The notes below the pieces were generated by a model. That model saw nothing but the letters and a program-made list of their open reading frames with translations, did no database searches and was not told the origin of the DNA. A program made the position numbers and the translations under genes. From the NCBI GenBank assembly GCA_903891415.1, contig CAITEH010000052.1:3727-67726 (forward strand): DNA of 64,000 nt, written 5' to 3'. Positions 871 through 63,741 of the stretch are shown in pieces (position 1 is the first letter of the stretch; each line of letters starts with the position of its first letter). This DNA is from Candidatus Firestoneibacteriota bacterium (GTDB lineage: Bacteria > Oederibacteriota > D2-FULL-39-29).

Positions 871-1653
871 ATGCCTGAACTACCGGATCTTGAAGTGCTG
901 GCCGAGAATCTCGATAAGCTTACGGGCGGTAAAAAGATAAAAAAAGTTGTTGTCCTGAAAGATAAGCCGGTACAGCCCTTGCCGCCTGCTGAGTTCATCT
1001 CCTTTGTTGAAGGAAAGATAATCAAGTCGGTAAAACGGACAGGCAAACAGCAGTTATTCACCTTTGATGACGGCAATACCCTGCTTGTGCACCTGATGCT
1101 GCACGGAGAACTACATTACCTGCAAGCAGCCGAGCCATTACCTGCCTATGCGGTAGCGGCTTTTTATTTTGCCGAAAATAAAGTCCTTGTCTTTAAGGAT
1201 CATACCCAGTGGCTGAAACTCCGCCTTAATACCCAGGGAGAGTCCGTGATGGACCCGGTAACCAAAAAATTTACCCTGCAGTTTTTCAGAAAATTGATAC
1301 AGGATAAGCCGAAAAACGCGGTTAAGGAGATACTTCTGAACCAGGAAAATATTACCGGTATCGGCAGTGCTTATGCCGATGAGATCTGCTATAATGCTAA
1401 AATAAGGCCGCAGGCCTGTGCCGGGGACCTTGAAGAAAAAGACATTAAGCTCCTTTTCCATGCTGTTGTGGACACGCTGAAGGACGCTGTTAGAAAGATA
1501 AAAAAAGGTATGGCCGGGAATATTACAGGGGAGTTTACGGAGCATTTTGCGGTTCACGGAAAAAAGAAAGGCAAGTGCCCTTTGGGCCACAAGCTGGAGA
1601 CGGTAAAAGTGGGCGGCAGGGGCAGCGAATATTGCCCCATTTGTCAAAAATGA
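871..1653 (+). CDS. mutM: Fpg/Nei family DNA glycosylase/AP lyase
   Basis: N-terminal PELPD, RTGK lysine, H2TH LLNQENITGIGSAYADE, C-terminal zinc finger with GGR. Confidence 0.88.
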   Translation: MPELPDLEVLAENLDKLTGGKKIKKVVVLKDKPVQPLPPAEFISFVEGKIIKSVKRTGKQQLFTFDDGNTLLVHLMLHGELHYLQAAEPLPAYAVAAFYFAENKVLVFKDHTQWLKLRLNTQGESVMDPVTKKFTLQFFRKLIQDKPKNAVKEILLNQENITGIGSAYADEICYNAKIRPQACAGDLEEKDIKLLFHAVVDTLKDAVRKIKKGMAGNITGEFTEHFAVHGKKKGKCPLGHKLETVKVGGRGSEYCPICQK

Positions 1654-1771
1654 CGAAGTACGAATGACAAATGACGATATAATGAAAGCGGGTCAAAGAG
1701 GCCCGCTAATTTTGGAATAAATAATGCTTAGGAAGAATATATTGTACTTCGTAATTCGTGCTTTGTACTTA
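1648..1771. repeat. Inverted heptamer-array cassette
   Basis: Left arm AAATGAC GAAGTAC GAATGAC AAATGAC (1648-1675). Right arm GTACTTC GTAATTC GTGCTTT GTACTTA (1744-1771). Central hairpin AGCGGG..CCCGCT at 1687-1707. Confidence 0.75.
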
Positions 1772-1802
1772 CATTGTCAGCAATGGGGAGCTATTAACTA
1801 AG

Positions 1803-2771
1803 ATGAAAGTTAGCCGCAAACCAAGTATTATTATCACCATGGGGGATCCTGCCGGGATAGGCCCTGAAGTCGTATTAAAATCCCTCAAGGAAATTGTTGA
1901 ATTTGCCGACCCAATTGTTATCTGCGACTATGAGTTCCTCCGGAAAACGGCTAAACGCCTGCGGCTAAAAGTCCCTGATGTTTTTTATATAGATATGGAA
2001 AATATCGGGAAGAAAAAAATAATTCCTGGGAAAATAAGCGCGGTTTGCGGAAGAGCGTCTTATGAATATATAGAACTGGCCGTCCGGCTTGCCCGGGAGA
2101 AATTGGCGGAGGCAATTGTGACGGCTCCCATCACCAAAGGATCTTTTCACGCGGCAGGCATAAAATACCCCGGACATACCGAGATGCTGGCCGGTCTTAC
2201 AGGCACAAAAGATTACGCGATGATGCTCACCGGTGACCGTCTCAGGGTCGTGCTGGTCACTATCCATACTTCTCTTGCAAGCGTTCCCGGGCTTATTAAA
2301 AAAGAAAAGATCCTGAAAAAAATAACTCTTACCGCAAAATGGCTGAAAAAATACCTGAAAATAAAGCGGCCCGTAATAGCCGTTGCCGCCTTGAATCCCC
2401 ACGCGGGAGAGGGCGGTATATTCGGCAAAGAAGAAGCAAAAGAAATAATTCCCGCGCTAAAAGCCGCGCAAAAACTCAAGGGAGTTAAGGTCCTCGGCCC
2501 GGTCGTTCCCGATATTCTTTTTTATAAAGCCATGAAAGGCGCCTATGACGCGGTGGTCTGCATGTATCATGACCAGGGCCTGATACCGCTTAAAATGGTC
2601 GGCTTTGAAACCGGCGTAAATATTACCCTGGGCCTCCCTATCATACGTACCTCTCCTGATCACGGAACCGCTTATGATATAGCAGGGAAAGGCCTTGCTG
2701 ACCCGGGAAGTTTTATAGAAGCCGCAAGAATGGCTGCCCGGCTGGCCCAAAGTGAAGAGCACCTCAAATAA
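1803..2771 (+). CDS. pdxA: 4-hydroxythreonine-4-phosphate dehydrogenase PdxA
   Basis: ITMGDPAGIGPE, TAPITK, GHTE, LNPHAGE, MYHDQG and RTSPDHGTA motifs. ATG 1803 after GGGGAG chosen over GTG 1758. Confidence 0.95.
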   Translation: MKVSRKPSIIITMGDPAGIGPEVVLKSLKEIVEFADPIVICDYEFLRKTAKRLRLKVPDVFYIDMENIGKKKIIPGKISAVCGRASYEYIELAVRLAREKLAEAIVTAPITKGSFHAAGIKYPGHTEMLAGLTGTKDYAMMLTGDRLRVVLVTIHTSLASVPGLIKKEKILKKITLTAKWLKKYLKIKRPVIAVAALNPHAGEGGIFGKEEAKEIIPALKAAQKLKGVKVLGPVVPDILFYKAMKGAYDAVVCMYHDQGLIPLKMVGFETGVNITLGLPIIRTSPDHGTAYDIAGKGLADPGSFIEAARMAARLAQSEEHLK

Positions 2772-2790
2772 TTTCCGAATTAATTCTCTC

Positions 2791-2900
2791 ATCTGTGCGA
2801 TTCCACCACAAAGCGCTGGTGGATTTCGCTTCACTCAACTCTCTACCCATCCCTGCCCGCCGGTCTTTTTGGAGGGTGTGTCATCAGGCCACAAAGGCCT
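2791..2900. repeat. Truncated copy of the CACAGAT/ATCTGTG element with one CCACCA..TGGTGG palindrome
   Basis: 2791-2838 matches 51478-51525 at about 43 of 48 nt. TGTGTCATCAGGCC (2877-2890) is the exact reverse complement of 51338-51351. Confidence 0.8.
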
Positions 2901-2911
2901 CATTTTGGGCA

Positions 2912-2940
2912 TTGTTTTTTAAGCCAATCTAATATATAAT
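2912..2940 (+). promoter_or_regulatory. Sigma70-type promoter of nrdR operon
   Basis: TTGTTT (2912-17), 17 nt, TATAAT (2935-40). ATG lies 8 nt downstream with no SD. Confidence 0.5.
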
Positions 2941-2948
2941 AATCCTAT

Positions 2949-3398
2949 ATGAAATGTCCCTTTTGTAATTTTAAAAATGATAAAGTACTTGATTCGCGTG
3001 AAAGTAAAGACGGTAATTCCGTAAGACGGCGCAGGGAATGCCTTAAATGCTCCAAGCGTTTTACAACTTATGAGCAGGTGGAAAATATAATGCCTGTGGT
3101 CGTGAAAAAAGACGGCAGGCGTGAGACCTTTGACAGGTTCAAGATACTTAATGGAATAAAAAAAGCGTGTGAAAAACGGCCGGTTTCCATGGCGGCTATG
3201 GAAACAGTTGTACAGGATATAGAAAAAGCCGTGCATAACCGCATGGATAAAGAGATAAATGCCAAAGATCTTGGCGACCTGGTCATGGTGCAATTAAAAA
3301 AACTGGACCATGTTGCGTATGTGCGCTTTGCTTCCGTTTACCGTCAATTCAAAGATATAGGAGAATTTGTAGACGAAATAAAGAAGCTGCTTGGATGA
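2949..3398 (+). CDS. nrdR: Transcriptional repressor NrdR
   Basis: MKCPFC, RRRREC..C..RFTTYE, ATP cone, YVRFASVY. Confidence 0.97.
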   Translation: MKCPFCNFKNDKVLDSRESKDGNSVRRRRECLKCSKRFTTYEQVENIMPVVVKKDGRRETFDRFKILNGIKKACEKRPVSMAAMETVVQDIEKAVHNRMDKEINAKDLGDLVMVQLKKLDHVAYVRFASVYRQFKDIGEFVDEIKKLLG

Positions 3399-3414
3399 AG
3401 GGGGTTCTTGAACT

Positions 3415-5127
3415 ATGACAGTCTCAATGAAAAAGAAACTGGCGCAGATGCTTGTAGATGAAGGTATCATTTCCGACAACCAGCTGCAGGAAGCTCTGAA
3501 AGAATCAAAAGTCCAGAATGTCCGTCTCGAACAGGCCATTGTCAAGCTGGGTTATATCACCGACGAAGTTCTTATGGCTTTTATGGGCACCCAGATGGGT
3601 ATTCCTACCGTTAATCTCAGCGATCACGGGGAGATCGACCCCAATGTCGTTAAACTCCTTCCGGAAAATGTCTGCCAGCGGCAGATCCTTGTGGCGATCT
3701 CTAAAAAAGGGAATAACCTTACGGTCGCGATGTCGGACCCTTTAAATGTTTCCGCAATTGATGACATCAGGTTGATGACCGGTTTTGAAGTGACTCCTGT
3801 CTTATCAAGTGAAAGTGAAATTAAAGCGATGATCCAGAAGATCTTCAGCAATACCACGGCTGAGATGGAAGAAGTGATGAAGGACCTTGAGAATGTTGAA
3901 GATGTGGAACTTATGGCGGCCGAAGAGGAGATCGACGCGGCCAAGCTGGCGGCCGCTTCCGAGGACGCGCCCATTGTTAAACTTGTAAACGCGATGCTTA
4001 CCCGCGCTATCGAGGAAAAAGCTTCCGATATTCACCTTGAAATTTATGAAAAGATAACCCGGCTGCGCTACCGCATAGACGGCGTGCTCCATGAAAAAAC
4101 TGCGCCCCCGCGAAAAGTTTACGCGGCTCTGGTTTCCCGTTTAAAGATCATCTCCGAACTTGATATAGCGGAGAGAAGGCGTCCTCAGGACGGCCGCTGC
4201 AAAGTAAAAGTTTCCGGAAAAGAAGTTGACATGCGTGTTTCCGTGCTGCCTACCGGTTTCGGTGAAAAGGTGGTTATCCGCGTGCTTGATACTTCAAATT
4301 TACAGCTGGACCTTAACCAGCTGGGTTTTGAACCGGATATCCTGCAGCTTTATAAAAAAAATGTTGACGCGCCTTACGGCATGATCCTGGTAACCGGCCC
4401 TACCGGTTCCGGTAAATCTGTTACTCTCTTTTCCACGCTTGCGCTGCTTAATTATCCAGACGTTAATATCGTGACCATTGAAGATCCCATCGAATTCGTG
4501 ACCCAGGGAGTAAATCAGGTCATGGCAAACCCGAAAGCAGGGCTTACCTTCGCGAGCGGTCTAAAATCATTTCTGCGGCAGGACCCGGACATTATTCTTG
4601 TCGGGGAGATCCGCGACTCCGAAACCGCGCTTATTGCCATTAACGCCGCCCTCACCGGCCATCTTGTCCTCTCAACTTTGCATACTAACGACGCTCCTCA
4701 GGCCATGACGCGTCTTGATAATATGGGGGTGGAGCCCTTCCTTATCACCTCTTCTGTTATCATGGTCATTGCCCAGCGGCTTCTCAGAAAGATCTGTCCC
4801 AAGTGCAAAGAGGCCTACGAGGTTTCAGCTGAAGTGCTTGAAGATCTTAATATCAAACCGGCCGCAGGGGAAAAAGTTGTCTTCTACAGAGGCCTTGGTT
4901 GTTCCAACTGCGCTAATACGGGCTATAAGGGCCGGGCCGCTATTTACGAAGTTATGGTCATGAATGATGAGATAAGAAAACTTGTTTTAAAACACGCTTC
5001 CGGCACGGATATTAAAAAAATGGCCATAGAAACCGGGCTTGTTACCCTGCGTGAGGCCGGAATAAGGAAAGTCAAAGCCGGGACGACCAGTATTGAGGAA
5101 CTATTAAGGACCACGTCGGTAGATTAG
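3415..5127 (+). CDS. pilB: Type IV pilus assembly ATPase PilB (GspE/PulE family)
   Basis: MshEN-like N-terminus, ASDIH, PQDGR, GPTGSGKS, LRQDPD, CPKC..CSNC zinc motif. Confidence 0.93.
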   Translation: MTVSMKKKLAQMLVDEGIISDNQLQEALKESKVQNVRLEQAIVKLGYITDEVLMAFMGTQMGIPTVNLSDHGEIDPNVVKLLPENVCQRQILVAISKKGNNLTVAMSDPLNVSAIDDIRLMTGFEVTPVLSSESEIKAMIQKIFSNTTAEMEEVMKDLENVEDVELMAAEEEIDAAKLAAASEDAPIVKLVNAMLTRAIEEKASDIHLEIYEKITRLRYRIDGVLHEKTAPPRKVYAALVSRLKIISELDIAERRRPQDGRCKVKVSGKEVDMRVSVLPTGFGEKVVIRVLDTSNLQLDLNQLGFEPDILQLYKKNVDAPYGMILVTGPTGSGKSVTLFSTLALLNYPDVNIVTIEDPIEFVTQGVNQVMANPKAGLTFASGLKSFLRQDPDIILVGEIRDSETALIAINAALTGHLVLSTLHTNDAPQAMTRLDNMGVEPFLITSSVIMVIAQRLLRKICPKCKEAYEVSAEVLEDLNIKPAAGEKVVFYRGLGCSNCANTGYKGRAAIYEVMVMNDEIRKLVLKHASGTDIKKMAIETGLVTLREAGIRKVKAGTTSIEELLRTTSVD

Positions 5128-5140
5128 GAGGTAACGGGGA

Positions 5141-6205
5141 ATGTTTACGATAAATGATCTGCTCAGGGTTTTGTTTGAAAAGAATGCCTCGGACCTTCAT
5201 CTGACTTCGGGAACTTCGCCGGCTTTACGCATTGACGGGGATATTATTACCACGGAACTTGAAAAGCTTACCCCGGAAACCTGTCAGGAACTTGTTTACG
5301 GCGTATTAACGGATGAACAAAAAGAAAAATTTGAAAGAGAGAATGAACTGGATCTGGCTTTCGGCGTGAAAGGCCTGGGCCGGGTCAGAATGAATGTCTT
5401 CCGGCAGCGGGGCGCGGTGGCTGCGGTAATGCGTAACATTCCTTCCAAAATTGCGACTTTCGAAGAACTCGGTTTGCCTGAAGTTGTAAGCACCACCATT
5501 GTAAAGCTCCCCAAAGGCCTTGTGCTGGTAACCGGCCCTACCGGTTCCGGTAAATCCACTACTATTGCCTCAATAATAGATTATATTAACAGTGATAGAA
5601 AAGGGCACATTATTACCGTTGAAGATCCCATAGAATATGTTTATCATCACAAGAACTGCATAGTTAACCAGCGGGAGATAGGTGTTGATACGCCGAACTT
5701 TACCTCGGCTCTACGGCATATACTCCGGCAGGACCCCGATGTCATAGTCATAGGTGAAATGCGCGACCTGGAAACTATACAGGCGGCGCTGACCATAGGT
5801 GAAACAGGGCATCTTGTTTTTGGCACGCTCCATACTACCGATGCCGTGCAGTCCATAAACCGTGTAATAGATGTTTTTCCGCCGCACCAGCAGCAGCAGG
5901 TAAGGACGCAGCTTTCCTTCACTTTACAGGCGGTTCTTTCCCAGACCCTGCTTCCCAAGGCCTATTCCGGCGGGAGGGTCGCGGCAATTGAAGTTATGAT
6001 GCCTAATTCCGCCATCCGCAACCTGATCCGCGAAGATAAAGTCCACCAGGTCTATTCGACCATGCAGACTTCCGGGGAATCCGGCATGATCACGTTAAAC
6101 CAGTCGCTTTTTAATTTATACCAGAAACAGCTGGTTACTTATAATGATATTATGTTTGCTTCTCTTGACCAGAAAGACCTGCAAAGAATGGTCAAAGGTG
6201 TTTAG
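5141..6205 (+). CDS. pilT: Type IV pilus retraction ATPase PilT
   Basis: ASDLHL, GPTGSGKST, LRQDPD, AIRNLIRE signature. Confidence 0.96.
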   Translation: MFTINDLLRVLFEKNASDLHLTSGTSPALRIDGDIITTELEKLTPETCQELVYGVLTDEQKEKFERENELDLAFGVKGLGRVRMNVFRQRGAVAAVMRNIPSKIATFEELGLPEVVSTTIVKLPKGLVLVTGPTGSGKSTTIASIIDYINSDRKGHIITVEDPIEYVYHHKNCIVNQREIGVDTPNFTSALRHILRQDPDVIVIGEMRDLETIQAALTIGETGHLVFGTLHTTDAVQSINRVIDVFPPHQQQQVRTQLSFTLQAVLSQTLLPKAYSGGRVAAIEVMMPNSAIRNLIREDKVHQVYSTMQTSGESGMITLNQSLFNLYQKQLVTYNDIMFASLDQKDLQRMVKGV

Positions 6206-6216
6206 GAGGAAAACTA

Positions 6217-7431
6217 ATGGCTGTATTTAATTATAAAGCGAAAACCGCGGAAGGGGCCGTTATTTCCGGAGTAATGGAAGCCGAGAACGAAAGAGTACTG
6301 ACGGCCAAACTTAAAGGCCAGAAACTGACCCTGGTGTCCTCGGTGCTGGAAAAAAAGAAAAGACTCGCGGGCAGGGGCGGTAAGGTCACAGTTAAAGATC
6401 TCTCGGTCTTCGCCCGGCAGTTCGCGACCATGATCTCGGCGGGCGTGCCTGTCTTGCAGTCACTTAACATTATCTATGAACAGGTCGAAAGCCGTAAATT
6501 AAAAGAATGCCTCGGAAAGATCAGGGAGGATATCGGGCAGGGGCAGACCCTCTCGGACGCCATGGGTAAACATCCTGAAATATTTTCAAATCTCTTCGTG
6601 AATATGGTGAAAGCCGGGGAAACCGGCGGTATTCTTGACGGCATACTGCAGCGTCTTTCCACTTATCTGGAAAAAGCGGACGCGCTCCGTAGAAAGGTTA
6701 AATCGGCGTTAACTTACCCCGTGATGGTGCTTGGCGTGGCTTTGGGCGTTACCGTCTTTCTTATGGTGGCGGTTTTACCGACTTTTAAGACTGTTTTTGA
6801 AAGTTTCGGCTCAAAACTTCCGGCTCCCACGCAGTTTGTTCTGTCTATTTCTGATTTTATGCAGTCCTTTTTTAAACCGCCGCAGGTCTTTATTGAAGCG
6901 GGAGTGGTAGCGGGTGTCTGGTTTCTGCTGAACCGTTATATGAAGACCAGAAAAGGACAGCTCCAGTGGGATGGTATTCTGCTAAAAATGCCTATGTTCG
7001 GTATTTTAATAAAAAAAGTAGCCGTTGCTAAATTTGCCCGTACTTTAGGCACCCTTATTAAATCCGGTGTGGCCATACTTGAAGCCCTTGAAATTACCGC
7101 GAAAACCTCCGGTAACCTGGTTGTAGAAGAGGCCATTATGAAAGCCCGCGCGGCTATCCGTGAAGGTGAAAATATTACCGGGCCGCTTAAGGACGCCGGT
7201 ATATTCCCCGTGATGATAATTCAAATGGTCTCGGTGGGTGAAGAAACGGGTACTATTGATGATATGCTTATCAGATGTGCGGATTTCTATGACGATGAAG
7301 TTGATACTGCTGTCGGCGGTTTGACCTCAATGCTGGAACCTCTTATTATGGCCTTCCTCGGCGTGGTTATCGGCGGTATCGTTATCGCCATGTTCTTACC
7401 TATGTTCTCCATGAGTGAAGTTGTAGGTTAA
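6217..7431 (+). CDS. pilC: Type IV pilus platform protein PilC (GspF family)
   Basis: RQFATMISAGVP, AGETGG, KSALTYP, GEETG, EP..MAFLG. Follows pilB-pilT. Confidence 0.94.
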   Translation: MAVFNYKAKTAEGAVISGVMEAENERVLTAKLKGQKLTLVSSVLEKKKRLAGRGGKVTVKDLSVFARQFATMISAGVPVLQSLNIIYEQVESRKLKECLGKIREDIGQGQTLSDAMGKHPEIFSNLFVNMVKAGETGGILDGILQRLSTYLEKADALRRKVKSALTYPVMVLGVALGVTVFLMVAVLPTFKTVFESFGSKLPAPTQFVLSISDFMQSFFKPPQVFIEAGVVAGVWFLLNRYMKTRKGQLQWDGILLKMPMFGILIKKVAVAKFARTLGTLIKSGVAILEALEITAKTSGNLVVEEAIMKARAAIREGENITGPLKDAGIFPVMIIQMVSVGEETGTIDDMLIRCADFYDDEVDTAVGGLTSMLEPLIMAFLGVVIGGIVIAMFLPMFSMSEVVG

Positions 7432-7446
7432 GAAAAGGACTTTAAA

Positions 7447-8448
7447 ATGTATGCCGGTTCCAAAATTATAGGCAAAGATCTTCGTTTGATCAACAGCAAG
7501 CTTATGTCTATTGCTTCCCGGGCAGACAAGTTAGTGCCTGGAATTAAAAGCCATTTGTTAAGCGGGGGTAAAAAACTACGCCCGTCGCTTTTAATGCTTG
7601 CTTACCGGGTCTTTCGTTCCGGAAATAAAGACCGCTATTTGAAACAGGCTCTTGATTTTGGAGCCGTAATAGAGACCCTGCACAATGCTTCCTTATTGCA
7701 CGACGATGTAATAGAAGATTCCGGTATTAGAAGGGGCCGGCGGACCATAAATTCTCTTTATGGCAATAAAAAAGCAGTTCTTGCCGGGGATCTTTTGACC
7801 GCTTTTTCCATGTCTCTCCTTTACAACCTTAAGAGTTCAAAAACAATAGAAAAAACCCTGCGGCTCTTTGGCCGCGCTGCGCGGGAGCTTGTAAAAGGCG
7901 AAATAGAGGAAGTAACCGGCCTTTTTAAGTTAACTATCTCCGAAAAAGAATATTTTGACGTTATTACCGGTAAAACTGCGGGGCTTTTTATGGCAGCTTC
8001 TGAAGCGGGCGCGGTCCTGGCGCGCGCCGGTAAAAAGCAGACAAAAGCTTTAAAAGAATACGGCCGGCATCTCGGTCTGGCTTTTCAGATCATAGATGAT
8101 ATCCTTGACCTTACGGGAACGGAAGCGGTGCTGGGTAAACCGGCGGCCTCAGACCTGCTCGAAGGCAAATTCACTTTACCGGTTATTTACGCGCTGCAAA
8201 AAGCGGATAAAATAGAGAAAAATAGAATTAAGAATATTATGTTGAATATCCGCAAAGGAAAAAAAGAAGCCGGCGGGGTGGAATATATAGTTGAAGTAAT
8301 TAAAAAATACGGCTGCCTGGATGCGGCTTATGTCAAAGCGAAGGAACAGGTGAATAAAGCTATTTTCGCGTTAGAAAAACTTCCGAAAAATGAATTCAGG
8401 CGCGCGCTCGAAAAAGCCGCTTCTTTTGTTTTGGAACGCGAGCGCTAG
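7447..8448 (+). CDS. Polyprenyl diphosphate synthase
   Basis: GGKKLRP, LHDDVIED..RRG, KTA, FQIIDD..D, GK...SDL.EGK.TLP. Confidence 0.92.
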   Translation: MYAGSKIIGKDLRLINSKLMSIASRADKLVPGIKSHLLSGGKKLRPSLLMLAYRVFRSGNKDRYLKQALDFGAVIETLHNASLLHDDVIEDSGIRRGRRTINSLYGNKKAVLAGDLLTAFSMSLLYNLKSSKTIEKTLRLFGRAARELVKGEIEEVTGLFKLTISEKEYFDVITGKTAGLFMAASEAGAVLARAGKKQTKALKEYGRHLGLAFQIIDDILDLTGTEAVLGKPAASDLLEGKFTLPVIYALQKADKIEKNRIKNIMLNIRKGKKEAGGVEYIVEVIKKYGCLDAAYVKAKEQVNKAIFALEKLPKNEFRRALEKAASFVLERER

Positions 8449-8479
8449 TTAAAATAAAAATTATGAAGGAGAAAAAGAA

Positions 8480-9649: not shown

Positions 9650-9697
9650 TCTTAAAATTTGCAGCATAGGCCCTGTTACAGGGCCTGGGGGGAATAT

Positions 9698-9877
9698 ATG
9701 GGCAATATAGGGTTACCTGAACTGGTAGTTATCCTGGTTCTCGCTCTCTTGATCTTCGGCGCCGGAAAACTTCCGGAGGTCGGAAGATCCCTGGGCAATT
9801 CTATCAAAGAATTTAAAAAAGCAATGAAGGATGACGCTCCGGATACCGGCAAAGCTTCAAAAAAAGCCAAGAAGTAA
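9698..9877 (+). CDS. tatA: Twin-arginine translocase TatA/TatE
   Basis: [32 protein letters not shown] 9698 after GGGGGAA. Confidence 0.93.
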
Positions 9878-9891
9878 GTGAAAGTGTGGAA

Positions 9892-10009: not shown

Positions 10010-10035
10010 CGGAAACGCGTGGTGCGGGGTTTTTT
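10001..10035 (+). terminator. Intrinsic terminator immediately upstream of the kinase RBS
   Basis: CCCTGCACC / GGTGCGGGG stem with inner CG-GAAA-CG, then TTTTTT. AAGGAG follows at 10038. Confidence 0.7.
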
Positions 10036-10051
10036 ACAAGGAGAAGTGTTT

Positions 10052-13469: not shown

Positions 13470-13483
13470 ATTAAATATAGTTT

Positions 13484-13680
13484 ATAAGGTTTTTAAGGTT
13501 CATAAAGTTTGTAAAGTCTTACATTAGGGTAGTATTGAAAGAATGTTTTGTAGTTGCTCGATTCATCGAGCCGCTCAATGAATTGAGCAACTACAAAATA
13601 ATTTACTGCATAATATACTTCAACGATTGTGGAACGTTACAAACTTTACAAACCTTATGAACGCACGTTATGAACTTATT
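13484..13680. repeat. Inverted nonamer-array cassette containing a REP doublet
   Basis: Left ATAAGGTTT TTAAGGTTC ATAAAGTTT GTAAAGTCT. Right GAACGTTAC AAACTTTAC AAACCTTAT. Homologous to 15693-15832 and 42911-43218. Confidence 0.8.
13546..13598. repeat. GTAG-type REP doublet (REPIN-like)
   Basis: GTAGTTGCTCGATTCATCGAGC and inverted GTAGTTGCTCAATTCATTGAGC separated by 1 nt. Perfect 14-bp outer inverted repeat. Confidence 0.8.
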
Positions 13681-14642: not shown

Positions 14643-14765
14643 AAAAAGCCCGTAGATCCTAAGCAGATAGAAATAATCAAATATCTTCATATCGTCGAAA
14701 CTCTGTGCGTAAGAGGAGAATTTCATTAAAAGCAATGAGCAGTATGCTTTTTTTTATGAAATATC

Positions 14766-14820
14766 CATCAACGCTTGTAAGACTTTATGAACTTTTGACC
14801 TTATAGACTTTAGACAATAT
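14766..14820. repeat. Right-arm remnant of nonamer cassette
   Basis: CATCAACGCTTGT followed by AGACTTTAT GAACTTTT GACCTTAT AGACTTT AGACAAT. Confidence 0.65.
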
Positions 14821-14840: not shown

Positions 14841-15692
14841 ATGAGGCTCCGTATTACCGTTGTACTTGCAGTGCTTTTGCTCAACTCTCCTTTTTTTTGC
14901 GCGGACAAGTTCCCGCCGGAAACTCAGGATATCCGGGTAAGATCTTCCCTGGACGGGGATATGCAGCCCTGCGCTTTATTTGTCCCCGGGGATTATAGCG
15001 CGGCTAAGCTCATCCCGCTGGTGGTGATACTTCATTCCTGGGGGTCTGATTATACTCCGAGTAAACCGGTCCTGCTTGAAGCCAAAAGAAAAGGCTGGAT
15101 AGGTATTTGCGCCAATTACAGGGGCGGTAACCAGGGCAAGAATGCCTGTGCTTCGCCGCAGGCGGTCCAGGATATAGTTGATGTTGTAGATTATGCCTGC
15201 AAGCAGTATAACATAGACAAAAACCGCATTTATTTATTCGGGGCTTCCGGCGGCGGGCATATGGCAATGATGATGGCGGGCCGGCACCCGGAGCTCTGGG
15301 CCGGGGTTTCAGAATGGTGCGGCATATCCGATCTGGCAAAATGGTCTTCCGAGCACCGGAGGGGCAAATCACTGTGTACCGATAAAAAGTTTTCTGAAAC
15401 GGTATTTGAAAATTTGAAGGCCATTTGCGGTGGCGTCCCGGGAAAAAATGAAAAAGTTGACAAAGAATATTTTGAAAGGTCTCCGATAAATTTTATCGAG
15501 AACGCAAAAGACCTGAATATTTCTTTTAACCACGGAAAGAACGACGAACTGGTGCCGTATCACCACAGCGAAGATGCGTATAATAAATTGCTGGCCGCGG
15601 GCAGCAAAAAAGCCGTTTTATATTTGCATGATAACCAGCATGCCGCGGACACGAAAAAAGCTTTCGATTGGCTGGAAAAACAGACGAAATAA
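14841..15692 (+). CDS. Secreted alpha/beta hydrolase (S9-like)
   Basis: Signal-like N-terminus, LHSWG, GASGGG nucleophile elbow, HG..DELVP, terminal His. Confidence 0.82.
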   Translation: MRLRITVVLAVLLLNSPFFCADKFPPETQDIRVRSSLDGDMQPCALFVPGDYSAAKLIPLVVILHSWGSDYTPSKPVLLEAKRKGWIGICANYRGGNQGKNACASPQAVQDIVDVVDYACKQYNIDKNRIYLFGASGGGHMAMMMAGRHPELWAGVSEWCGISDLAKWSSEHRRGKSLCTDKKFSETVFENLKAICGGVPGKNEKVDKEYFERSPINFIENAKDLNISFNHGKNDELVPYHHSEDAYNKLLAAGSKKAVLYLHDNQHAADTKKAFDWLEKQTK

Positions 15693-15832
15693 AAAATGTC
15701 TATAATGTCCATAAAGTCTTGTGCTAAGGCAGTAATAGTTATTTTGTAGTTTAAATATTAGTATTCTTCAGCGATTTTTAGACTTTACGGACCTTATAGG
15801 CCTTAGGGACTTTAGACGTTTTATTGGACTAT
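15693..15832. repeat. Inverted nonamer-array cassette with deleted centre
   Basis: Left AAAATGTCT ATAATGTCC ATAAAGTCT starts right after TAA. Right AGACTTTAC GGACCTTAT AGGCCTTAG GGACTTT. Confidence 0.75.
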
Positions 15833-17700: not shown

Positions 17701-17741
17701 CGGACCTTCAGGGGGAAACCCCCGGAGGTCCGCATTTTTTT
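17701..17741 (+). terminator. Intrinsic terminator of rnpB
   Basis: CGGACCT..GGGGG AAA CCCCC..AGGTCCG followed by T7. Confidence 0.85.
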
Positions 17742-17774
17742 AATAACTAATAGCTGATTTCTGATAGCTAATTG
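17740..17774. repeat. Heptamer array (YTRATWR)
   Basis: TTAATAA CTAATAG CTGATTT CTGATAG CTAATTG. Same units occur at 54612-54639. Confidence 0.65.
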
Positions 17775-18076: not shown

Positions 18077-18567
18077 AGAAATTTAAGGTTGTTTTTGATA
18101 CGAACGTCTATATTTCAGCAACAGTCTTTCCCGGGGGCATACCAGAAGAACTCTTAAAACTGGCTTTTTCCGGCGAACTTTTACTCGGTGTCTCAAAAGA
18201 TATATTGGAAGAGCTTTCAAATGTCTATCTTAGAAAATTTCATTTAAACAGCCGGGCTGTCAATGACCAGGTCAAAAGGATCTTGAACAATGCTGAATTG
18301 ATTGAACCGGGTGAGAAGATAACTGCAATAAGATCCGACAAGAGCGACAATATGATATTGGAATGCGCCGTTGCATACGACGCCGATGTAATAGTCTCAG
18401 GTGATTCGCATCTTTTAGAACTGAAAAAGTACAGGAGTATTTCCATACGGAAACCTGCAGATTTCTTGCGCGTGTATGGTTCCCTCGATGAAAAGAAAGG
18501 AAATATTACAGGAGAAAAACGGTCAAAATACCTGGTAAAAACGCGGGGAAGCCGAATCCGCGTTTAG
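18073..18567 (+). CDS. PIN-domain putative toxin
   Basis: VVFDTNV, ILEEL, SDNMILECA, IVSGDSHLL. Confidence 0.9.
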   Translation: MKKFKVVFDTNVYISATVFPGGIPEELLKLAFSGELLLGVSKDILEELSNVYLRKFHLNSRAVNDQVKRILNNAELIEPGEKITAIRSDKSDNMILECAVAYDADVIVSGDSHLLELKKYRSISIRKPADFLRVYGSLDEKKGNITGEKRSKYLVKTRGSRIRV

Positions 18568-18746
18568 AACAATAGACAATAGAAAATTGAAAATAAGCTG
18601 CATTTGAAAACCCGGTATTGCCGGTATGAAAAATAGGTTGCGGAAATTATATTAAACTAAATTAAAAAGAGGTACGGCTTTTGAGTTCGTCCCTCTTTTA
18701 ATTTCTCTATTTTCTATTCTCGGTTGTTCTATTGCTCTGTTCTAAA
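18563..18746. repeat. Inverted heptamer-array cassette with central bidirectional terminator
   Basis: TTTAGAAC / GTTCTAAA outer IR. AATAGAC AATAGAA AATTGAA versus TCTCTATT TTCTATT GTTCTATT. Hairpin AATTAAAAAGAGG..CCTCTTTTAATT at 18660-18703. Confidence 0.75.
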
Positions 18747-41564: not shown

Positions 41565-42313
41565 AAAAGGCCTTTATCTGGACGGATCGAGCCGGCGGGA
41601 TTCTGTGTTTTACCTCTCTAAAACCCCTGAGTTATAAAGAAAACAAATTTGAGAAAAACTATCCGGAACTGTTGAAATTTCTTAGGACAGTACCGCCGGA
41701 AAATTATTATGCCAGGCAGATACACGGAAAGAGAGTTCTCCTGGCAGGTCGCTCCGGAACAAAAATTCGCCGTCCTGCCGACGGATTCGCTGCCTTTAGT
41801 CCGGGCTGCATGCTTCTGATATTTACGGCTGACTGCCTTCCGGTCTTTATATACGACGGCGCAAAAGGCCATACCGCGATCACGCATTGCGGGTGGAAGG
41901 GTGCCTATAAAGAAATTGTTTCAAATGCCGTCAGGAAATTAAGAAAAAGAGGTTCGGCATCCCGTGATCTCAAGGTTATACTGGGGCCTTGTATCCGTGA
42001 ATGTTGTTATGAGGTAGATGCACCATTTATTAAGCGTTTTGCCGGAAAATACGGAAAAACCGGGCTTTACAGAAAAAAAGGAAAAAATTATTTTTCCCTG
42101 GCTGATATAGTAAAACTTCAATTGAAAAAACTTGGAATTCCTGCTAGAAATATCAAAGATACAAAAGAATGTACCTGCTGCCAACCCGAACGGTACTTTT
42201 CTTATAGAAGAGACGGCAAAGGCACAGGCAGAATGGTGTCAGGGATAATGATAGAGGCACGGAAGGACGGAGGGGCAGAAGTACGGAAGTACGGAAGGAC
42301 AGAGGAACGGTAA
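41561..42313 (+). CDS. pgeF: Peptidoglycan editing factor PgeF (YfiH/laccase-like)
   Basis: QIHG, ADG, TADC.P, H.GWKG, GPCI..CCYEV, CT.C, FSYRR. Confidence 0.9.
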   Translation: MKKAFIWTDRAGGILCFTSLKPLSYKENKFEKNYPELLKFLRTVPPENYYARQIHGKRVLLAGRSGTKIRRPADGFAAFSPGCMLLIFTADCLPVFIYDGAKGHTAITHCGWKGAYKEIVSNAVRKLRKRGSASRDLKVILGPCIRECCYEVDAPFIKRFAGKYGKTGLYRKKGKNYFSLADIVKLQLKKLGIPARNIKDTKECTCCQPERYFSYRRDGKGTGRMVSGIMIEARKDGGAEVRKYGRTEER

Positions 42314-42380
42314 GAGCAATAGGCTTTAGCTGTTTGCTGTAGGCTGTACATCTGTTCATCTGACCATCTGCTCATCTAGC
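42257..42380. repeat. Octamer-array cassette overlapping the pgeF 3' end
   Basis: Seven units GCACGGAA GGACGGAG GGGCAGAA GTACGGAA GTACGGAA GGACAGAG GAACGGTA. Opposite arm CATCTGTT CATCTGAC CATCTGCT CATCTAGC. Confidence 0.7.
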
Positions 42381-42908: not shown

Positions 42909-42910
42909 AG

Positions 42911-43218
42911 AAGGTCTGTAAGGTCCGTAAAGTCTTAAAGTCCATAAGGTCTTACACTAAGGTGGTATTAAAAGGTGTTTTGTAGTTGCTCGATTTATCG
43001 AGCCGCCTAATCTAATTGAGTAATTACTTTGTTTTGTCATCTCCGGTCTGAGCCAGGGATGACAGGGTTATCAGTAGTATAGTGCAATACTTTCAAGGGT
43101 AAATAATATAATCCCAAAGATTTTAGACCTTACAGACCTTATGGACTTTTGGACCTTACGGACCTTAAGACCTTACAGACTTTAAGACCTTATGGACCTT
43201 AAGACCTTACGGACTAAT
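42911..43218. repeat. Inverted nonamer-array cassette with REP and GTCAT hairpin in centre
   Basis: Five left units (GTAAGGTCC type) and about eleven right units (RGACYTTAY, 43125-43218). REP at 42982-43003. TGTCATC..GATGACA hairpin at 43035-43064. Confidence 0.85.
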
Positions 43219-51295: not shown

Positions 51296-51342
51296 GGCCC
51301 AAATCCGGCCAAAATTGCAGGATTTTGGCTGGATTTGGGCCT
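51295..51342. repeat. 21-bp hairpin/cruciform
   Basis: AGGCCCAAATCCGGCCAAAAT-TGCAGG-ATTTTGGCTGGATTTGGGCCT, one G-T pair, no U tract. Confidence 0.85.
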
Positions 51343-51667
51343 GATGACACAGATGGGAAGCGAGATGTCACAGATAGGGGCAAAAAGCACAGATTTGCAT
51401 TTCGGGACAAATGAATTATATTTATAGGCCGGCAATTTGTAATTGAAAGGAAAGGAACATAAATTGCGGAAAAAAACATCTGTGCCATTCCACCACAAAA
51501 CGTTGGTGGATTTCGTTCCACTCAATCCACCACAAAGCATTGGTGGATTTCGTGCCACTCAACTCTCTGCCTGTCCGGAGGCCTTCTGAACTATACCTCG
51601 CCAAAGCATTTGGGGCGTTATCTCCCATTTTTATCTGTGCCATCTCCCTACCCATCTGTGTCATCAG
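51341..51667. mobile_element. MITE-like element with 17-bp perfect terminal inverted repeats
   Basis: CTGATGACACAGATGGG (51341-57) / CCCATCTGTGTCATCAG (51651-67), extending imperfectly to about 36 bp. Two tandem 37-bp palindromic units at 51489 and 51526. No transposase. Confidence 0.65.
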
Positions 51668-51678
51668 CCCCGCTGGGC

Positions 51679-53508: not shown

Positions 53509-54615
53509 ATGAACGGAAGAGAAAGATTTAATGCCATAACACACTTTAAACCTTTTGACAGGGTGCAGAACAGGGAATTCGGCTATTGGGCTGAGACTCT
53601 TCCGAAATGGGCCGGGGAAGGCCTGCCGGCTGCTATTACAAATGAGGCCGCTGCCAATAAATATTTTGGTTTCGACAAATTTATTGAAGCAAAGATACCT
53701 TTGGGCCTCTTTCCGCTTTTTGAACCAAAGCTGCTTGAAACGGGAAAGGAATACAATCTTGAAATCGACAGCGAAGGTGTTACTAAAAAAGTATTTACAA
53801 GCGGTGCCTCAATGATCCCCCACAATATTGATTACTCGCTGAAAGACCGGATATCCTGGAAGGAATTTAAAAAACGGCTGGTCCCGGGGGCCCATAGATA
53901 CCCGGAAAACTGGAAAAAAACGGTTGCGAAGTTAAATGACCCGAAACGTGATTATCCTGCCGGCTTAAGCGTGGGCTCGCTGCTCGGGGTTCCGCGTAAC
54001 TGGATGGGTTTTGAGAACTGCGCGATGATGTTTTACGATGATCCGGAACTGATGCGCGAAATAGTGGAGACCATGGGGGATGTTATTGTAGGGACTATTG
54101 AACCCGCGCTTAAGGAAGTAAAATTTGACTATGCTGATATGTGGGAAGATATCGCTTTCAAGAACGGGCCTATGATCTCGCCTGAAATGTTCAAGGAATT
54201 TATTATTCCGCAATATAAAAGGATCTCTGCCCTGCTGCGAAAATACGGCGTGGATGTTTGCTGGGTGGACTGCGACGGGGATATTAATTCCCTGGTCCCG
54301 CTCTGGCTGGAGGCGGGCATAAACGGCATGTTCCCTCTGGAAGTAGGCTGTTTTACCGACCCTGTTGCGCTCCGGAAAAAATATGGAAAAGATGTGTTGT
54401 TGTTCGGCGGTGTAAACAAGCGGGAGCTGGCAAAGAGCAAAAAAGAAATTGATGCGGAGGTTAACCGGCTGCGCCCTCTGGTGGAAGGCGGCGGGTTCGT
54501 TCCTCATGTGGACCACAGATGCCCGCCTGACGTTTCCTATGAGAATTACAAGTATTATCTGAAGAAAAAGAAGGAAGTTTTTGGTATTTCGGATTGGATC
54601 CAAACTTTCAAATAA
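53509..54615 (+). CDS. Uroporphyrinogen decarboxylase-family (MtaA/CmuA-like) protein
   Basis: ER..A...F...DR, R.WMG.E, WED.A...GP.ISP, DCDG, GG..K, GG...DH..PPD. Confidence 0.82.
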   Translation: MNGRERFNAITHFKPFDRVQNREFGYWAETLPKWAGEGLPAAITNEAAANKYFGFDKFIEAKIPLGLFPLFEPKLLETGKEYNLEIDSEGVTKKVFTSGASMIPHNIDYSLKDRISWKEFKKRLVPGAHRYPENWKKTVAKLNDPKRDYPAGLSVGSLLGVPRNWMGFENCAMMFYDDPELMREIVETMGDVIVGTIEPALKEVKFDYADMWEDIAFKNGPMISPEMFKEFIIPQYKRISALLRKYGVDVCWVDCDGDINSLVPLWLEAGINGMFPLEVGCFTDPVALRKKYGKDVLLFGGVNKRELAKSKKEIDAEVNRLRPLVEGGGFVPHVDHRCPPDVSYENYKYYLKKKKEVFGISDWIQTFK

Positions 54616-54639
54616 TAACTGATAGTTAATAACTAATTG
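54612..54639. repeat. Heptamer array (YTRATWR) overlapping stop codon
   Basis: ATAATAA CTGATAG TTAATAA CTAATTG. Shares units with 17740-17774. Confidence 0.55.
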
Positions 54640-54694
54640 AATAAAAAATAGTGACGCAAAGGAAGCACTCAGCCGACAGGCCCGGGAGGATAAT

Positions 54695-61690: not shown

Positions 61691-62141
61691 ACTCCTTGCT
61701 TCAGGTTTTGGAACGGGGTATTCTCCCGTAGCCAGCGGTACCGCGGGAACTCTGGTCGGCGTGGCCCTTTTTTTCCTTTTGCCCCAAAAATATATTTTGC
61801 CTGCGGCCGTGGTCATATTTATGGCCGGGGTTTATATTTCTACTGAAGCCGAAAAACTTTACGGTAAAAAAGATTCGGGAAAGATAGTTATAGATGAGAT
61901 CGCGGGCTATCTGTTCTCCCTGGCTTTTATGCCTCCCGCGGGTTTTGGCTCCCAAAAATGGCTTTTTGCCTCTGCCGGTTTTGTGCTCTTCCGTATTTTT
62001 GACGTATGGAAACCTTTTCCCGCGCGCGGAGCCCAGGAATTAAGAGGCGGGTGGGGTGTCATGCTGGATGATTTGATCGCCGGCATCTATACCAACGCGG
62101 TGCTGTGGCTGCTGGTACTTGCCTTAAAAATGGTTTCTTAA
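61671..62141 (+). CDS. pgpA: Phosphatidylglycerophosphatase A
   Basis: G.G.SP.A.GT.G, D.G.IVIDE..G, FR.FD..KP, GVMLDDL.AG. Confidence 0.95.
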   Translation: MKNIIIKLLASGFGTGYSPVASGTAGTLVGVALFFLLPQKYILPAAVVIFMAGVYISTEAEKLYGKKDSGKIVIDEIAGYLFSLAFMPPAGFGSQKWLFASAGFVLFRIFDVWKPFPARGAQELRGGWGVMLDDLIAGIYTNAVLWLLVLALKMVS

Positions 62142-62692
62142 AGTTTGAAAAGCACCGCCTCCTGCAGGATCTTGCCGTCAAGCGCGTAAACTCTTCCGGT
62201 GGCTTTTTTTCCCTCCAGTTCCAGCATGCCGAACGAGAGCGTATTATTCCGGTGATCGCCTTTTTTTAGATGTCCCGGATTTAAGAAAAGCGTATCGCCT
62301 TTTATCATGGCTTCGTAGAGATGCGAGTGCCCGTAGAGGTAAATGTCCGTCTCGTTTTCTATGGCGATCTTTTTCGGGTCCAAACTGCCCGGCAGGTCTT
62401 CGGGTTCCGGCCTGTCTGAATGCGTTAGAAAGAGCTTAAAGCCGGAGAGCTCCGTGAAAAAACGGTTTTGGATCTTCGGCTCGGTGTATTGTTTTTCATA
62501 AAGCCCCGGCACGCGGAAAACCGTGTCAGAATGTTCAAAAAGAAGGTCCGCGTCCTTATAGGTGTCTCCGAGATGAATAAAACCGGCCGCGCCCAAAGTT
62601 TTTGCTTTTTCAACGGCTCTCCTAAAAAGGCCAAGCTCATTATGGGTATCGGAAAAAACACCTATTATTGTTTTGAGCATTTCATCCTGCAT
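62138..62692 (-). CDS. Metallophosphoesterase (YfcE-like)
   Basis: SDTH, HLGD, TH, YGHSH, NPG. Confidence 0.85.
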   Translation of the reverse strand: MQDEMLKTIIGVFSDTHNELGLFRRAVEKAKTLGAAGFIHLGDTYKDADLLFEHSDTVFRVPGLYEKQYTEPKIQNRFFTELSGFKLFLTHSDRPEPEDLPGSLDPKKIAIENETDIYLYGHSHLYEAMIKGDTLFLNPGHLKKGDHRNNTLSFGMLELEGKKATGRVYALDGKILQEAVLFKL

Positions 62693-63603
62693 TTCCGGCA
62701 GGCCGCGTTACAGGGTTCCAGATGGAACATGACCTCCGTGTTCCTGAGCGATTTTTTAATATCTTTTTCTATATGATGCGTGAGTTCATGCGCTTCCTCT
62801 ACATGCAGGTCCCGCGAGACCGTCAGGTGCAGGTCCAGATACCTGAAAGGCCCTGATTTCCGGCTTCTTAGTTTATGAAAATCCACGAAAGACCCGGAGT
62901 TCTCCTGGATCGCTCTTCTGACTGTCTTTTCCTCTTCCGGCGAGATCTTTGTATCCACCAGGTTCAATATGGAATCTTTAGTTATCTGAAAAGCGGCAAA
63001 AGATATCCAGGCCGCAGTACCTGCCGCTATGAGCGGGTCCAGGTATTCAATGTGCGGGACAATGTCTTTTAAAAGGCTGATCAAAAGCAGGGCCGTAAAT
63101 ACCCCCAGAGAGGTGTAAACATCAGTCCGGAGATGCCAGGCATCGGCATCCAGCGCATCAGATTCCGTTTCTTTGGATATTTTAAACAGGTATCCTGAAA
63201 TAAAATAATTTACTACAGTTGAAACCAGCATTACACCGATGCCGATCCCTATATTGTTTATCTTCACGCCGTGCACAAACTTATCGTAGGCCTCGTGAAT
63301 TATCAGGTAAGCCGCGAAGAAAATAAGCAGGCCTTCAAGAAGAGCGGAAACGTTTTCGACCTTGCCGTGCCCGAAATGATGTTTTTTATCGGCAGGTTCC
63401 GAGGATTTAACTACCGAGTATTTGGCAATAATAGCTGCCGCCAGGTCCAGCCCGGAGTGAATAGCTTCCGCGATTATACTTACGGCGCCGGACATAATAC
63501 CCACCAGGAGCTTTAAAAGCACCAGTGCCAGGTTTGAAATGACCGAAAAATTGGCAGCGAATCTTTTTTTTATAGTTAATGCCGCGAGAGTCTTCTTTGA
63601 CAT
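62665..63603 (-). CDS. Cation diffusion facilitator (FieF-like)
   Basis: AEAIHS..D, HHFGHGK.E, DA.H.R.D, R.R..G, H....H. ATG 63603. Confidence 0.93.
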   Translation of the reverse strand: MSKKTLAALTIKKRFAANFSVISNLALVLLKLLVGIMSGAVSIIAEAIHSGLDLAAAIIAKYSVVKSSEPADKKHHFGHGKVENVSALLEGLLIFFAAYLIIHEAYDKFVHGVKINNIGIGIGVMLVSTVVNYFISGYLFKISKETESDALDADAWHLRTDVYTSLGVFTALLLISLLKDIVPHIEYLDPLIAAGTAAWISFAAFQITKDSILNLVDTKISPEEEKTVRRAIQENSGSFVDFHKLRSRKSGPFRYLDLHLTVSRDLHVEEAHELTHHIEKDIKKSLRNTEVMFHLEPCNAACRKCRMKCSKQ

Positions 63604-63700
63604 AGTAATATATATCACAAAATAATCCGGAAAGCAAAGATAAACCAAACCTGCTCCAATATTCCATCTTTTGTTATTAATTTATTATAGATCCTGCACT

Positions 63701-63741
63701 ATCTGTGTCATCTCATTTGTCATCTGTGCCATCTGCCTTCC
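63701..63741. repeat. ATCTGTG right-arm remnant
   Basis: ATCTGTGTCATC..GTCATCTGTGCCATCTG, same units as 51632-51667. Confidence 0.65.

Follow-up and report, generated by a model that had tools for sequence, protein, structure and literature searches.

Short-unit repeat arrays between genes of a Candidatus Firestoneibacteriota genome as probable members of several dispersed insertion-element families

What are the arrays of short, degenerate tandem units that recur between the genes of this stretch of DNA? The window, 64,000 nt of a Candidatus Firestoneibacteriota bacterium (contig C52:3727-67726 of the host genome, G000; positions without a contig name follow window numbering), carries ordinary housekeeping genes such as mutM, pdxA, a larA-like gene, a cell-division and cell-wall (dcw) cluster, pgeF and a nitroreductase gene, and belongs to an assembly of 2.5 Mb in 86 contigs with 44.7% G+C and 87% completeness. 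A first-pass annotation had listed 11 intergenic array sites and had proposed that they are empty versions of a mobile class or, alternatively, duplex-forming RNA elements. Our analysis leads us to conclude that the 11 sites are probably complete, half, nested or decayed members of several small families of dispersed insertion elements, which share the architecture of rRNA intervening sequences (IVS) and of cassettes that carry four-helix-bundle genes.

The arrays are real. All 11 sites hold degenerate units of 7-10 nt on direct reading, and Tandem Repeats Finder (TRF) detects most of them. Genome-wide, an autocorrelation scan (32-nt window, at least 22 matches) returned 50 arrays of period 7, 9 of period 8, 76 of period 9 and 18 of period 10, where block-shuffled DNA gave 0-2 per period. 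A motif-cluster caller found 192 arms against 4 in shuffled DNA, and 177 of the 192 lie outside long open reading frames (ORFs), although these make up 89% of the genome. The roughly 190 arms fall into at least eight unit families: TAARGTYYR (the nonamer, N9, with a 10-nt variant), CTAGGTN, CTGATAR, TACGAAK/TGACAAA, AATAGA, ACGGAAGR, GTTGGATG and GATGNCACAGAT. Each element end is an array of about four such units; among nonamer arms 35 have three strict units, 46 have four and 5 have five, a sharp fall at five. The nonamer family is also restricted by lineage, since 10 of 11 genomes of the order contain phased nonamer triplets (2-135 matches each) and none of the 49 other genomes of the phylum-level group does, with 0-1 matches for a reversed-pattern control. 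Chance low-complexity sequence in AT-rich spacers, which has nothing in its favour beyond the degeneracy of the units, thus has practically no probability left as the origin of the arrays. The first-pass annotation had raised the prospect of arrays no commoner or more inverted than in shuffled DNA, and it is the shuffle (192 against 4), the orientation of paired arms (27 to 0, below) and the reversed-pattern control that already refute it.

The elements are composite as well as repetitive. When 13 nonamer elements are aligned, conservation covers the arms and an inner motif but neither flanks nor cores, and similarity stops at the outer arm ends. The inner motif, AAATCGTTGAAGGATAT, is a unique 17-nt sequence; with up to 3 mismatches allowed, it adjoins 23 nonamer arms, in all 23 cases on the inner side and in the same relative orientation. 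The TACGAA family likewise shares a core of GACGATATAATGAA plus a hairpin, and GACGATATAATGAA adjoins 6 such arms in the genome. With an inner motif and a core shared at unlinked loci, the elements are therefore dispersed copies of composite sequences.

Once in place, arrays evolve. Higher-order periods of 17, 24 and 34 nt in TRF output reflect recent local amplification. The one close relative, G001, is a same-genus 'Candidatus Firestonebacteria' metagenome-assembled genome of about 80% protein identity, and our comparison with it rests on 377 kb of assembled sequence. At one orthologous junction (G000 C5:110882-111002, G001 C67:28162-28260) an octamer, GTACGGAA, stands in one species and the heptamer GTACGAA in the other, which reads as a one-base unit change homogenised along the array. 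Arrays in this way expand and change in place by slippage and homogenisation. One could go further and suppose that they were never inserted, that they arose in place by duplication or slippage of the junction between stop codon and ribosome-binding site, and that small genes landed in them later. The higher-order periods and the GTACGAA/GTACGGAA junction agree with such an origin, as do an octamer-like native sequence, ACGGAAGCAGAGAGG, at the pgeF end of genome G008, a native dxs end, GTAAGGGG, that resembles the nonamer core, and a resemblance of the units to pieces of stop codon and Shine-Dalgarno sequence, noted by eye only. Against it count the one non-repetitive 17-nt motif in fixed orientation beside 23 nonamer arms at unlinked loci, the common core of heptamer copies, the inverted pairs of strict polarity (27:0), which local slippage would not be expected to produce, and the presence of the same nonamer family at about 100 sites per genome across the order; we find a wholly local origin very doubtful. 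The by-eye resemblance concerns both arms: inward-reading units recall stop codons with Shine-Dalgarno fragments (TAAGGT, CTAGGTG, ACGGAGGG) and opposite arms recall the 3' tail of 16S rRNA (ACCTCCTTA).

Returning to dispersed insertion elements, we found that their arms have a fixed polarity. Among same-family arms less than 400 nt apart 27 pairs converge, none diverges, and one pair each runs in tandem to the right and to the left. The strand that reads inward, from flank into element, is G-rich and C-poor (23% G, 11% C). A test of GC skew without family definitions gave the same picture: G exceeds C in 51 of 75 arrays nearer the left gene as against 19 of 79 nearer the right gene (Fisher p = 6e-8), so that the G-rich strand reads away from the nearer gene. 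Here and in the distance statistics below, gene calls are crude longest-ORF calls. Stop codons are 2.2-fold denser in the inward direction because of the poverty in C (11%), which is a composition effect and not a special design; indeed a three-frame stop trap was rejected, inward arms closing 1.66 frames on average and shuffled arms 1.60.

The same arms bracket genes elsewhere. The first-pass annotation had likened them to the flanks of stand-alone four-helix-bundle (TIGR02436) and GxxExxY (TIGR04256) genes. For the four-helix-bundle genes this is true in G000 and across a phylum-level sample, and a genome-wide check for copies that enclose an ORF found four-helix-bundle genes on contigs C33, C51 and C43 and a GxxExxY gene on C36. 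The C33 gene (34712-35080) is intact, scores 117.2 bits against TIGR02436 (cut-off 24) and has nonamer arms together with the inner motif. The PF05635 copy on C51 is frameshifted and has nonamer arms; that on C43 has one stop and TACGAA arms. Four reported matches thus correspond to three four-helix-bundle genes in G000, one locus being intact and two decayed. In the phylum-level sample of 61 genomes, 19 PF05635 loci have full flanks, and 17 of them have an array (periods of 6-10 nt) within 300 nt, 10 on both sides, where the background is 0.09 per equivalent length. G exceeds C in 12 of 14 upstream arrays and in 2 of 16 downstream ones, which is the polarity of the G000 arms, while the unit sequence differs nearly every time. 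None of the 11 window elements holds a PF05635/TIGR02436 ORF.

The GxxExxY link stood in part only. Clear short-period arrays flank none of 29 loci, and that version of the link was dropped; instead, 11 of 23 loci have flanking inverted repeats above the 95th percentile of controls, with CACAGAKG-like units, a match that concerns only the family of the window sites 51341 and 63701. The C36 pseudogene bears GATGNCACAGAT arms as at 51341, and this arm type is the one that flanks GxxExxY genes (the C36 pseudogene and G001 locus L214). An intact GxxExxY gene on C75 (TIGR04256 124 bits, cut-off 35) is flanked by longer repeats. A separate motif, GATTCCACTGAT, has 79 matches at up to 1 mismatch, in tandem at a spacing of about 25-50 nt (window 51735-51780, C75:1-300, C4:13392-13653, C5:113474-113614); it flanks the intact gene on C75 and precedes a thymidylate-synthase-like gene in the window.

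A third kind of cargo appears in the sister species, where pseudopilin-like ORFs, paralogous to each other, are found in the nonamer cassettes at the larA and nitroreductase stops; the one in the ortholog of the 42909-43216 cassette has 158 aa. The orthologous window sites are gene-less versions with the same inner motif as these cargo cassettes. The interior is thus interchangeable: some copies are empty, while others hold a hairpin, small repeats of another kind or a short gene, which may be of the four-helix-bundle, the GxxExxY or, in the sister species, the pseudopilin-like type.

The window elements, with their parts, are as follows.

1649..1681, plus strand: left arm of a heptamer element of the TACGAA/TGACAAA type, with the stop TGA of mutM (1651-1653) inside its first unit.
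1686..1706, plus strand: core hairpin of this element, AGCGGG-N9-CCCGCT, matched by hairpins in the corresponding place of the C56 and C18 copies.
1746..1779, plus strand: its right arm (CTTCGTA, TTCGTGC and TTTGTAC units), which ends just before the pdxA start and pairs with 1653-1681 in the predicted fold.
13475..13520, plus strand: N9 (TAARGTYYR) left arm of five units, beginning 6 nt past the larA-like stop.
13518..13536, plus strand: N9 subfamily-B inner motif CTTACATTAGGGTAGTATT, which in G001 precedes the pseudopilin-like cargo genes.
13546..13598, plus strand: nested palindrome TTTTGTAGTTGCTC...GAGCAACTACAAAA, like repetitive extragenic palindromes (REP) and of a repeat family separate from the arrays.
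13613..13680, plus strand: N9 inner motif (reverse copy of AAATCGTTGAAGGATAT) and then the right arm (RACYTTAYR units), ending 18 nt before the next start codon.
14761..14815, plus strand: single N9 right arm with inner motif before the hydrolase gene, orthologous to the right end of a cargo-bearing cassette in G001.
15690..15818, plus strand: N9 element with left arm 15690-15721, which includes the hydrolase stop TAA, inner motif 15761-15777 and right arm 15780-15818.
17740..17774, plus strand: single heptamer arm (CTGATAR/CTAATAG) that follows the RNase P RNA terminator and forms the left edge of a 1-kb segment absent here in G001.
18565..18744, plus strand: element of AATAGA heptamers lying between convergent genes; its left arm begins with the stop TAG of the PIN gene (18565-18567), the core hairpin is at 18659-18703 and the right arm ends in the stop of an isomerase-like gene (18742-18744, minus strand).
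42257..42313, plus strand: ACGGAAGG octamer array with a 24-nt higher-order period, coding the last ~20 residues and the stop of a pgeF-like ORF.
42320..42380, plus strand: short arrays of TAGGCTG and CATCTGNT, not complementary to 42257-42313.
42909..43216, plus strand: largest N9 element, with a five-unit left arm (42909-42952) directly past the nitroreductase stop, subfamily-B inner motif (42951-42969), a decayed REP-like palindrome in the core (~42982-43015) and an expanded right arm (43124-43216) of 10-11 units with 17- and 34-nt higher-order periods.
51341..51671, plus strand: GATGNCACAGAT-armed element with arms at ~51341-51392 and 51625-51671 and two nested 37-nt palindromic units (51489-51562).
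54612..54640, plus strand: single CTGATAR heptamer arm, starting at the stop TAA (54613-54615) of a URO-D-like gene.
63690..63745, plus strand: single arm of the CACAGAT type, reversed in orientation, within a divergent promoter region that has no stop codon nearby.

An inverted layout of left arm and reverse-complement right arm, claimed for the complete arrays, holds for the paired sites; 14766, 17740, 54612 and 63701 are single arms. Site 42257 is no inverted pair, the second array there (CATCTGNT, 42341-42380) not being the complement of ACGGAAGG, and we read it as two different arrays. Two separate palindromic repeats occur nested in elements. A REP-like one, GTAGTTGCTCGA, has 35 genome matches at up to 1 mismatch. 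The other, TCCACCACAAAGCGTTGGTGGA, has 28 matches at up to 3 mismatches (window 2802-2823 and 51489-51562; elsewhere C38:23601-23862), often as tandem units of 37-40 nt, up to 7 in a row, and nested in other elements; its spacing is too short for CRISPR. A known RNA family as the identity of the arrays was rejected, because an Rfam search of the window matches only RNase P RNA (17319-17695). That search finds no rRNA in the window, and the sites sit between protein genes or beside RNase P RNA. In scans of positions 1-20000 terminators are not in excess and the sole strong promoter (17775-17811) is that of a toxin-antitoxin pair. The segment around it, 17721-18739, consists of a CTGATA arm, this sigma-70-like promoter, a toxin-antitoxin-like pair formed by an 80-aa ORF and a PIN-domain gene, and the AATAGA element.

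Where do the elements sit relative to genes? Left arms had been said to start at the upstream stop codon, and for the six genes named (mutM, hydrolase, PIN, pgeF, nitroreductase and URO-D) the stop does lie in or just before the first unit. As an exclusive rule this fails genome-wide, where arms lie close against the genes on either side. Measured to the first strict unit, stops are a median of 15 nt away and start codons 36 nt, so that elements fill whole spacers, and single arms facing a stop (54) outnumber those facing a start (34) by a moderate bias. 'Planted at stop codons' is therefore better described as insertion between the functional end of a cistron and the next ribosome-binding site.

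Comparison of orthologous junctions, which the first-pass annotation had recommended as a search for empty sites, found both filled and empty ones. Among 136 adjacent gene pairs conserved between G000 and G001, arrays occur in both species at 8, in G001 only at 18 and in G000 only at 6. Hence 24 of 32 array-bearing junctions differ, and of the 8 shared ones 5 have the same family and 3 different families. The mutM|pdxA, pgeF|nitroreductase and URO-D|redoxin junctions carry other families in G001 (octamer and heptamer arrays at URO-D). The 51341 element is orthologous in G001 with a different core of only ~60 nt. The segment 17721-18739 is absent from its site there, RNase P RNA and the isomerase-like gene being ~40 nt apart and the toxin-antitoxin-like pair lying on another contig. 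A xylose-isomerase-like TIM-barrel gene (13698-14642) sits between the complete nonamer element and the single right arm; its ortholog in G001 (C67:19251-20192) belongs to another operon, and a nonamer arm begins at its stop codon. Arrays coincide with breaks of synteny between the two species. When strain-level variation was sought, no database record was found for the nitroreductase protein, and the single close metagenome contig found was identical to G001.

The clearest history is that of the ispA-dxs-nadK operon, which lies outside the window (G000:C39). In G000, G003, G006, G007, G009, G010 and G011 the ispA|dxs junction is TAA|ATG, with a gap of -1 to +1. These seven genomes come from three families, so the tight junction is the ancestral state. 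It was struck independently by three array families: G001 has an insert of 318 nt with nonamer half-elements, G005 one of 165 nt with a TACGAA-type foldback of the family found at window position 1648, and G002 one of 236 nt with octamers and an arm of 10-nt units. At the end of each insert the last ~7 ispA codons (L-K-E...stop) recur as a decayed second copy, which contains the dxs ribosome-binding site and abuts the dxs ATG. Counted by hand against the tight junction of G003, the copy matches at 15/21 nt in G002 and 14/21 nt in G001, and no copy needs an internal gap in the alignment. The pattern resembles a target duplication of about 20 nt. At dxs|nadK an ancestral ATGA overlap or 2-3-nt gap has been replaced by inserts in G001 (361 nt) and G002 (87 nt). 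Both fall within the last ~5 dxs codons, dxs gaining a new tail and stop from the array, and G002 retains the old dxs end, GTAAGGGGATAG, as nadK leader.

Taken together, these junctions show that the elements enter the few bases between a cistron's functional end and the next ribosome-binding site. The upstream ORF then ends within the first units, whose poverty in C makes them rich in stops, and the downstream gene keeps its ribosome-binding site, as the original or as an apparently duplicated copy of the old junction. There is a consequence for annotation, as arrays can supply ordinary genes (pgeF, dxs, mutM) with their C-terminal tails and stop codons. The pgeF-like ORF at 41561-42313 reads ~20 codons through the octamer array and its Pfam match ends at residue 230 of 250; the pgeF tail after the conserved residues GRMVSGII differs in four lineages, and in G008 the spacer is 3 nt. 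With tail and stop encoded by the array, annotated C-termini beside such arrays should not be trusted as native.

Several observations weigh against insertion elements. No transposase, recombinase or reverse transcriptase was found within or between arms (same-family arms up to 6 kb apart, in the 87% complete assembly), and the ORFs inside widely spaced arm pairs, considered as sites for a transposase, are metabolic genes only. Three genes match the Y1 transposase family (PF01797; C50:2497-2784, C75:11491-11817 and C46:856-1188, in open frames of 176-233 aa). As mobilisers of the arrays, Y1 or REP-associated tyrosine transposase (RAYT) genes were rejected: the C50 gene, read directly, is flanked by its own GTAG-type hairpins (GTAGGTCAGAC / GTAGGTCAGACATTCCTGTCTGAC), and TRF reports no array directly flanking the genes on C75 and C46. 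The C50 hairpins resemble the REP-like palindromes nested at 13546-13598 and ~42982-43015, not the arrays, and a REP/RAYT-like arrangement probably accounts for the GTAG palindromes in nonamer cores. No recent movement is documented because there is only one close relative, at ~80% protein identity. The ~20-nt duplication comes from one locus in relatives and from hand-counted identities; convergence on a ribosome-binding site, or selection for one, could produce part of the same pattern. No clear target duplication was found at the window's own elements, where similarity between the mutM end and the pdxA leader is inseparable from the arm units themselves, and none is evident at dxs|nadK. Of 172 arms, 112 have no detectable partner. 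Some arrays may have been seeded locally, the native pgeF end of G008 (ACGGAAGCAGAGAGG) resembling the window octamer unit. Finally, the duplex energy of an element's own arms is no better than with the arms of other copies (permutation p = 0.35 for N9 and 0.49 for TAGGT), so selection for an exact stem is not supported. The proposal of empty versions of a mobile class is accordingly borne out in the arms and inner motifs shared with gene-bearing copies and in the filled and empty junctions; a mobilising enzyme is the missing part.

Could the elements act as RNA? Predicted folds are strong at 13470-13690 (z = -8.7), 1645-1785 (z = -5.0) and 18560-18750 (z = -3.7), with the arms pairing in each. 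We infer that paired arms, when co-transcribed with their operon, form one long and imperfectly matched hairpin, similar to the stems of IVS cut by RNase III. The earlier duplex proposal thus keeps its folding potential and loses compensatory support, the permutation test having given no copy-specific arm complementarity (p = 0.35, 0.49). In a rival account the elements are host-selected RNA elements, whose paired arms form double-stranded stems in operon transcripts; cleavage of the stems by RNase III or another nuclease, or stabilisation of upstream mRNA by them, would uncouple or tune neighbouring cistrons, and the spread of the elements would reflect selection for function, not selfish mobility. 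The fold scores, the location of arms at cistron boundaries, the persistence of the nonamer family throughout the order and the RNase III cutting of heptamer stems in the Coxiella IVS all suit this account, and so do the Xanthomonas heptamer repeats, which are mostly transcribed (PMC4692102). It accommodates less well the absent compensation between arms and the unpaired majority of arms, a unit number that can differ two-fold between the arms of one element (42909-43216), the different array families at orthologous sister-species junctions and an arm in a divergent promoter region (63690). We regard host selection as unlikely, if worth keeping in view.

Another account takes the arrays as binding sites for an oligomeric protein, one unit per subunit, with the four-helix-bundle protein as candidate and the inverted layout setting two bound oligomers around the cargo. 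Units that combine a conserved core with variable positions (TAARGT + YYR) would suit it, as would the sharp mode of unit counts, reported for other heptamers too (PMC4692102). Binding would need no complementarity between the arms of one copy and would tolerate single arms; the PDB relatives 2gsc and 2rld have five chains per entry, and PF05635 is tightly associated with arrays. The arithmetic is less favourable, about eight unit families facing one intact and two decayed four-helix-bundle loci, with no such gene found in the 87% complete assembly for the TAGGT, CTGATA, AATAGA and octamer families. Periods of 7, 8, 9 and 10 nt would require different geometries. We hold binding to be distinctly unlikely as the explanation of the arrays, and retain dispersed insertion elements as the preferred one.

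To our knowledge heptamer repeats near gene ends have been catalogued for decades, in cyanobacteria, Xanthomonas and Geobacter, with no accepted origin or function, and the IVS gene is equally unexplained. G000 ties the two together through gene-bearing and gene-less copies with the same arms, and the idea that such repeats are insertion elements adapted to cistron boundaries becomes testable. We are led to a speculation, itself improbable at present, that short tandemly repeated repetitive (STRR) heptamers, nonamers, four-helix-bundle and GxxExxY cassettes and rRNA IVS form one widespread unrecognised insertion class. It would insert specifically where stop codon and Shine-Dalgarno sequence meet in translationally coupled cistrons and would copy ~20 nt of that junction, allowing both genes to survive; its arm units would descend from the junction or share homology with it (stop and Shine-Dalgarno-like in one arm, 16S-tail-like in the other), and a host or cargo factor, possibly a four-helix-bundle oligomer, would act on the arrays. 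A literature search found no paper on cargo-less armed cassettes of such a kind and none that joins the heptamer-repeat and IVS observations.

How do the elements compare with known systems? ORF-bearing IVS, known from Coxiella and Leptospira among others, are inserted in a 23S rRNA helix (9, 25 or 45). Likeness to the G000 elements lies in terminal inverted repeats that form a long stem, in tandem heptamers of variable number, in an easily decaying PF05635/TIGR02436 cargo and in a mobility that is proposed and unproven. The Coxiella burnetii IVS has tandem GACAGAT heptamers in an RNase III-cut stem, with unit numbers that differ among strains (Warrier et al. 2016, PMC4990558), and carries this same protein family (PMC4990558). 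The G000 elements differ in lying between protein-coding cistrons and not in rRNA helices, in being mostly gene-less, in arms that are whole arrays of 7-, 8-, 9- or 10-nt units (~190 arms) and in their other cargo (GxxExxY, pseudopilin-like). The IVS stem is cut by RNase III; the G000 stems are predicted ones.

STRR heptamers of heterocystous cyanobacteria have been known since 1990. With these and with the intergenic heptamers of Xanthomonas, Nostoc and Geobacter the arrays share tandem units of ~7 nt, a mode of about four, a strong intergenic bias and the same polarity. Rehm et al. 2015 (PMC4692102) describe GGGAATC in Xanthomonas and GGGGAYT in Nostoc with a preference for four units, place the G-rich strand on the coding strand less than 50 nt from or overlapping a stop codon, and on the non-coding strand just upstream of the next ORF, and report no association with mobile elements. 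Heptanucleotide families are also described in Geobacter metallireducens (Aklujkar et al. 2009, PMC2700814). The dominant G000 family differs in being a nonamer (period 9) and so extends the class; the literature treats the heptamers as quadruplex-forming or regulatory and draws no link to inverted pairs with cargo. The units TAARGTYYR, CTGATAR, TACGAAK and AATAGA have no GGG tracts, and for the nonamer family a quadruplex is therefore not expected.

MITEs, which are small transposable elements with inverted repeats, and foldback elements are alike in being multi-copy and gene-less, with terminal inverted repeats, conserved subterminal motifs, variable cores, nesting and filled and empty sites. 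The G000 elements depart from them in ends that are tandem arrays in place of unique repeats, in frequent half elements, in having no transposase-bearing parent that we could find and in a possible target duplication of ~20 nt, longer than usual. REP, bacterial interspersed mosaic elements (BIMEs) and REP doublets with RAYT genes (REPIN-RAYT) resemble them in their intergenic location, often at gene 3' ends, in hairpin formation and inverted doublets, and in the three Y1-transposase-like genes of G000. In contrast to these, the arrays are not palindromic units, and the Y1 genes and the nested REP-like family go with the GTAG-type hairpins.

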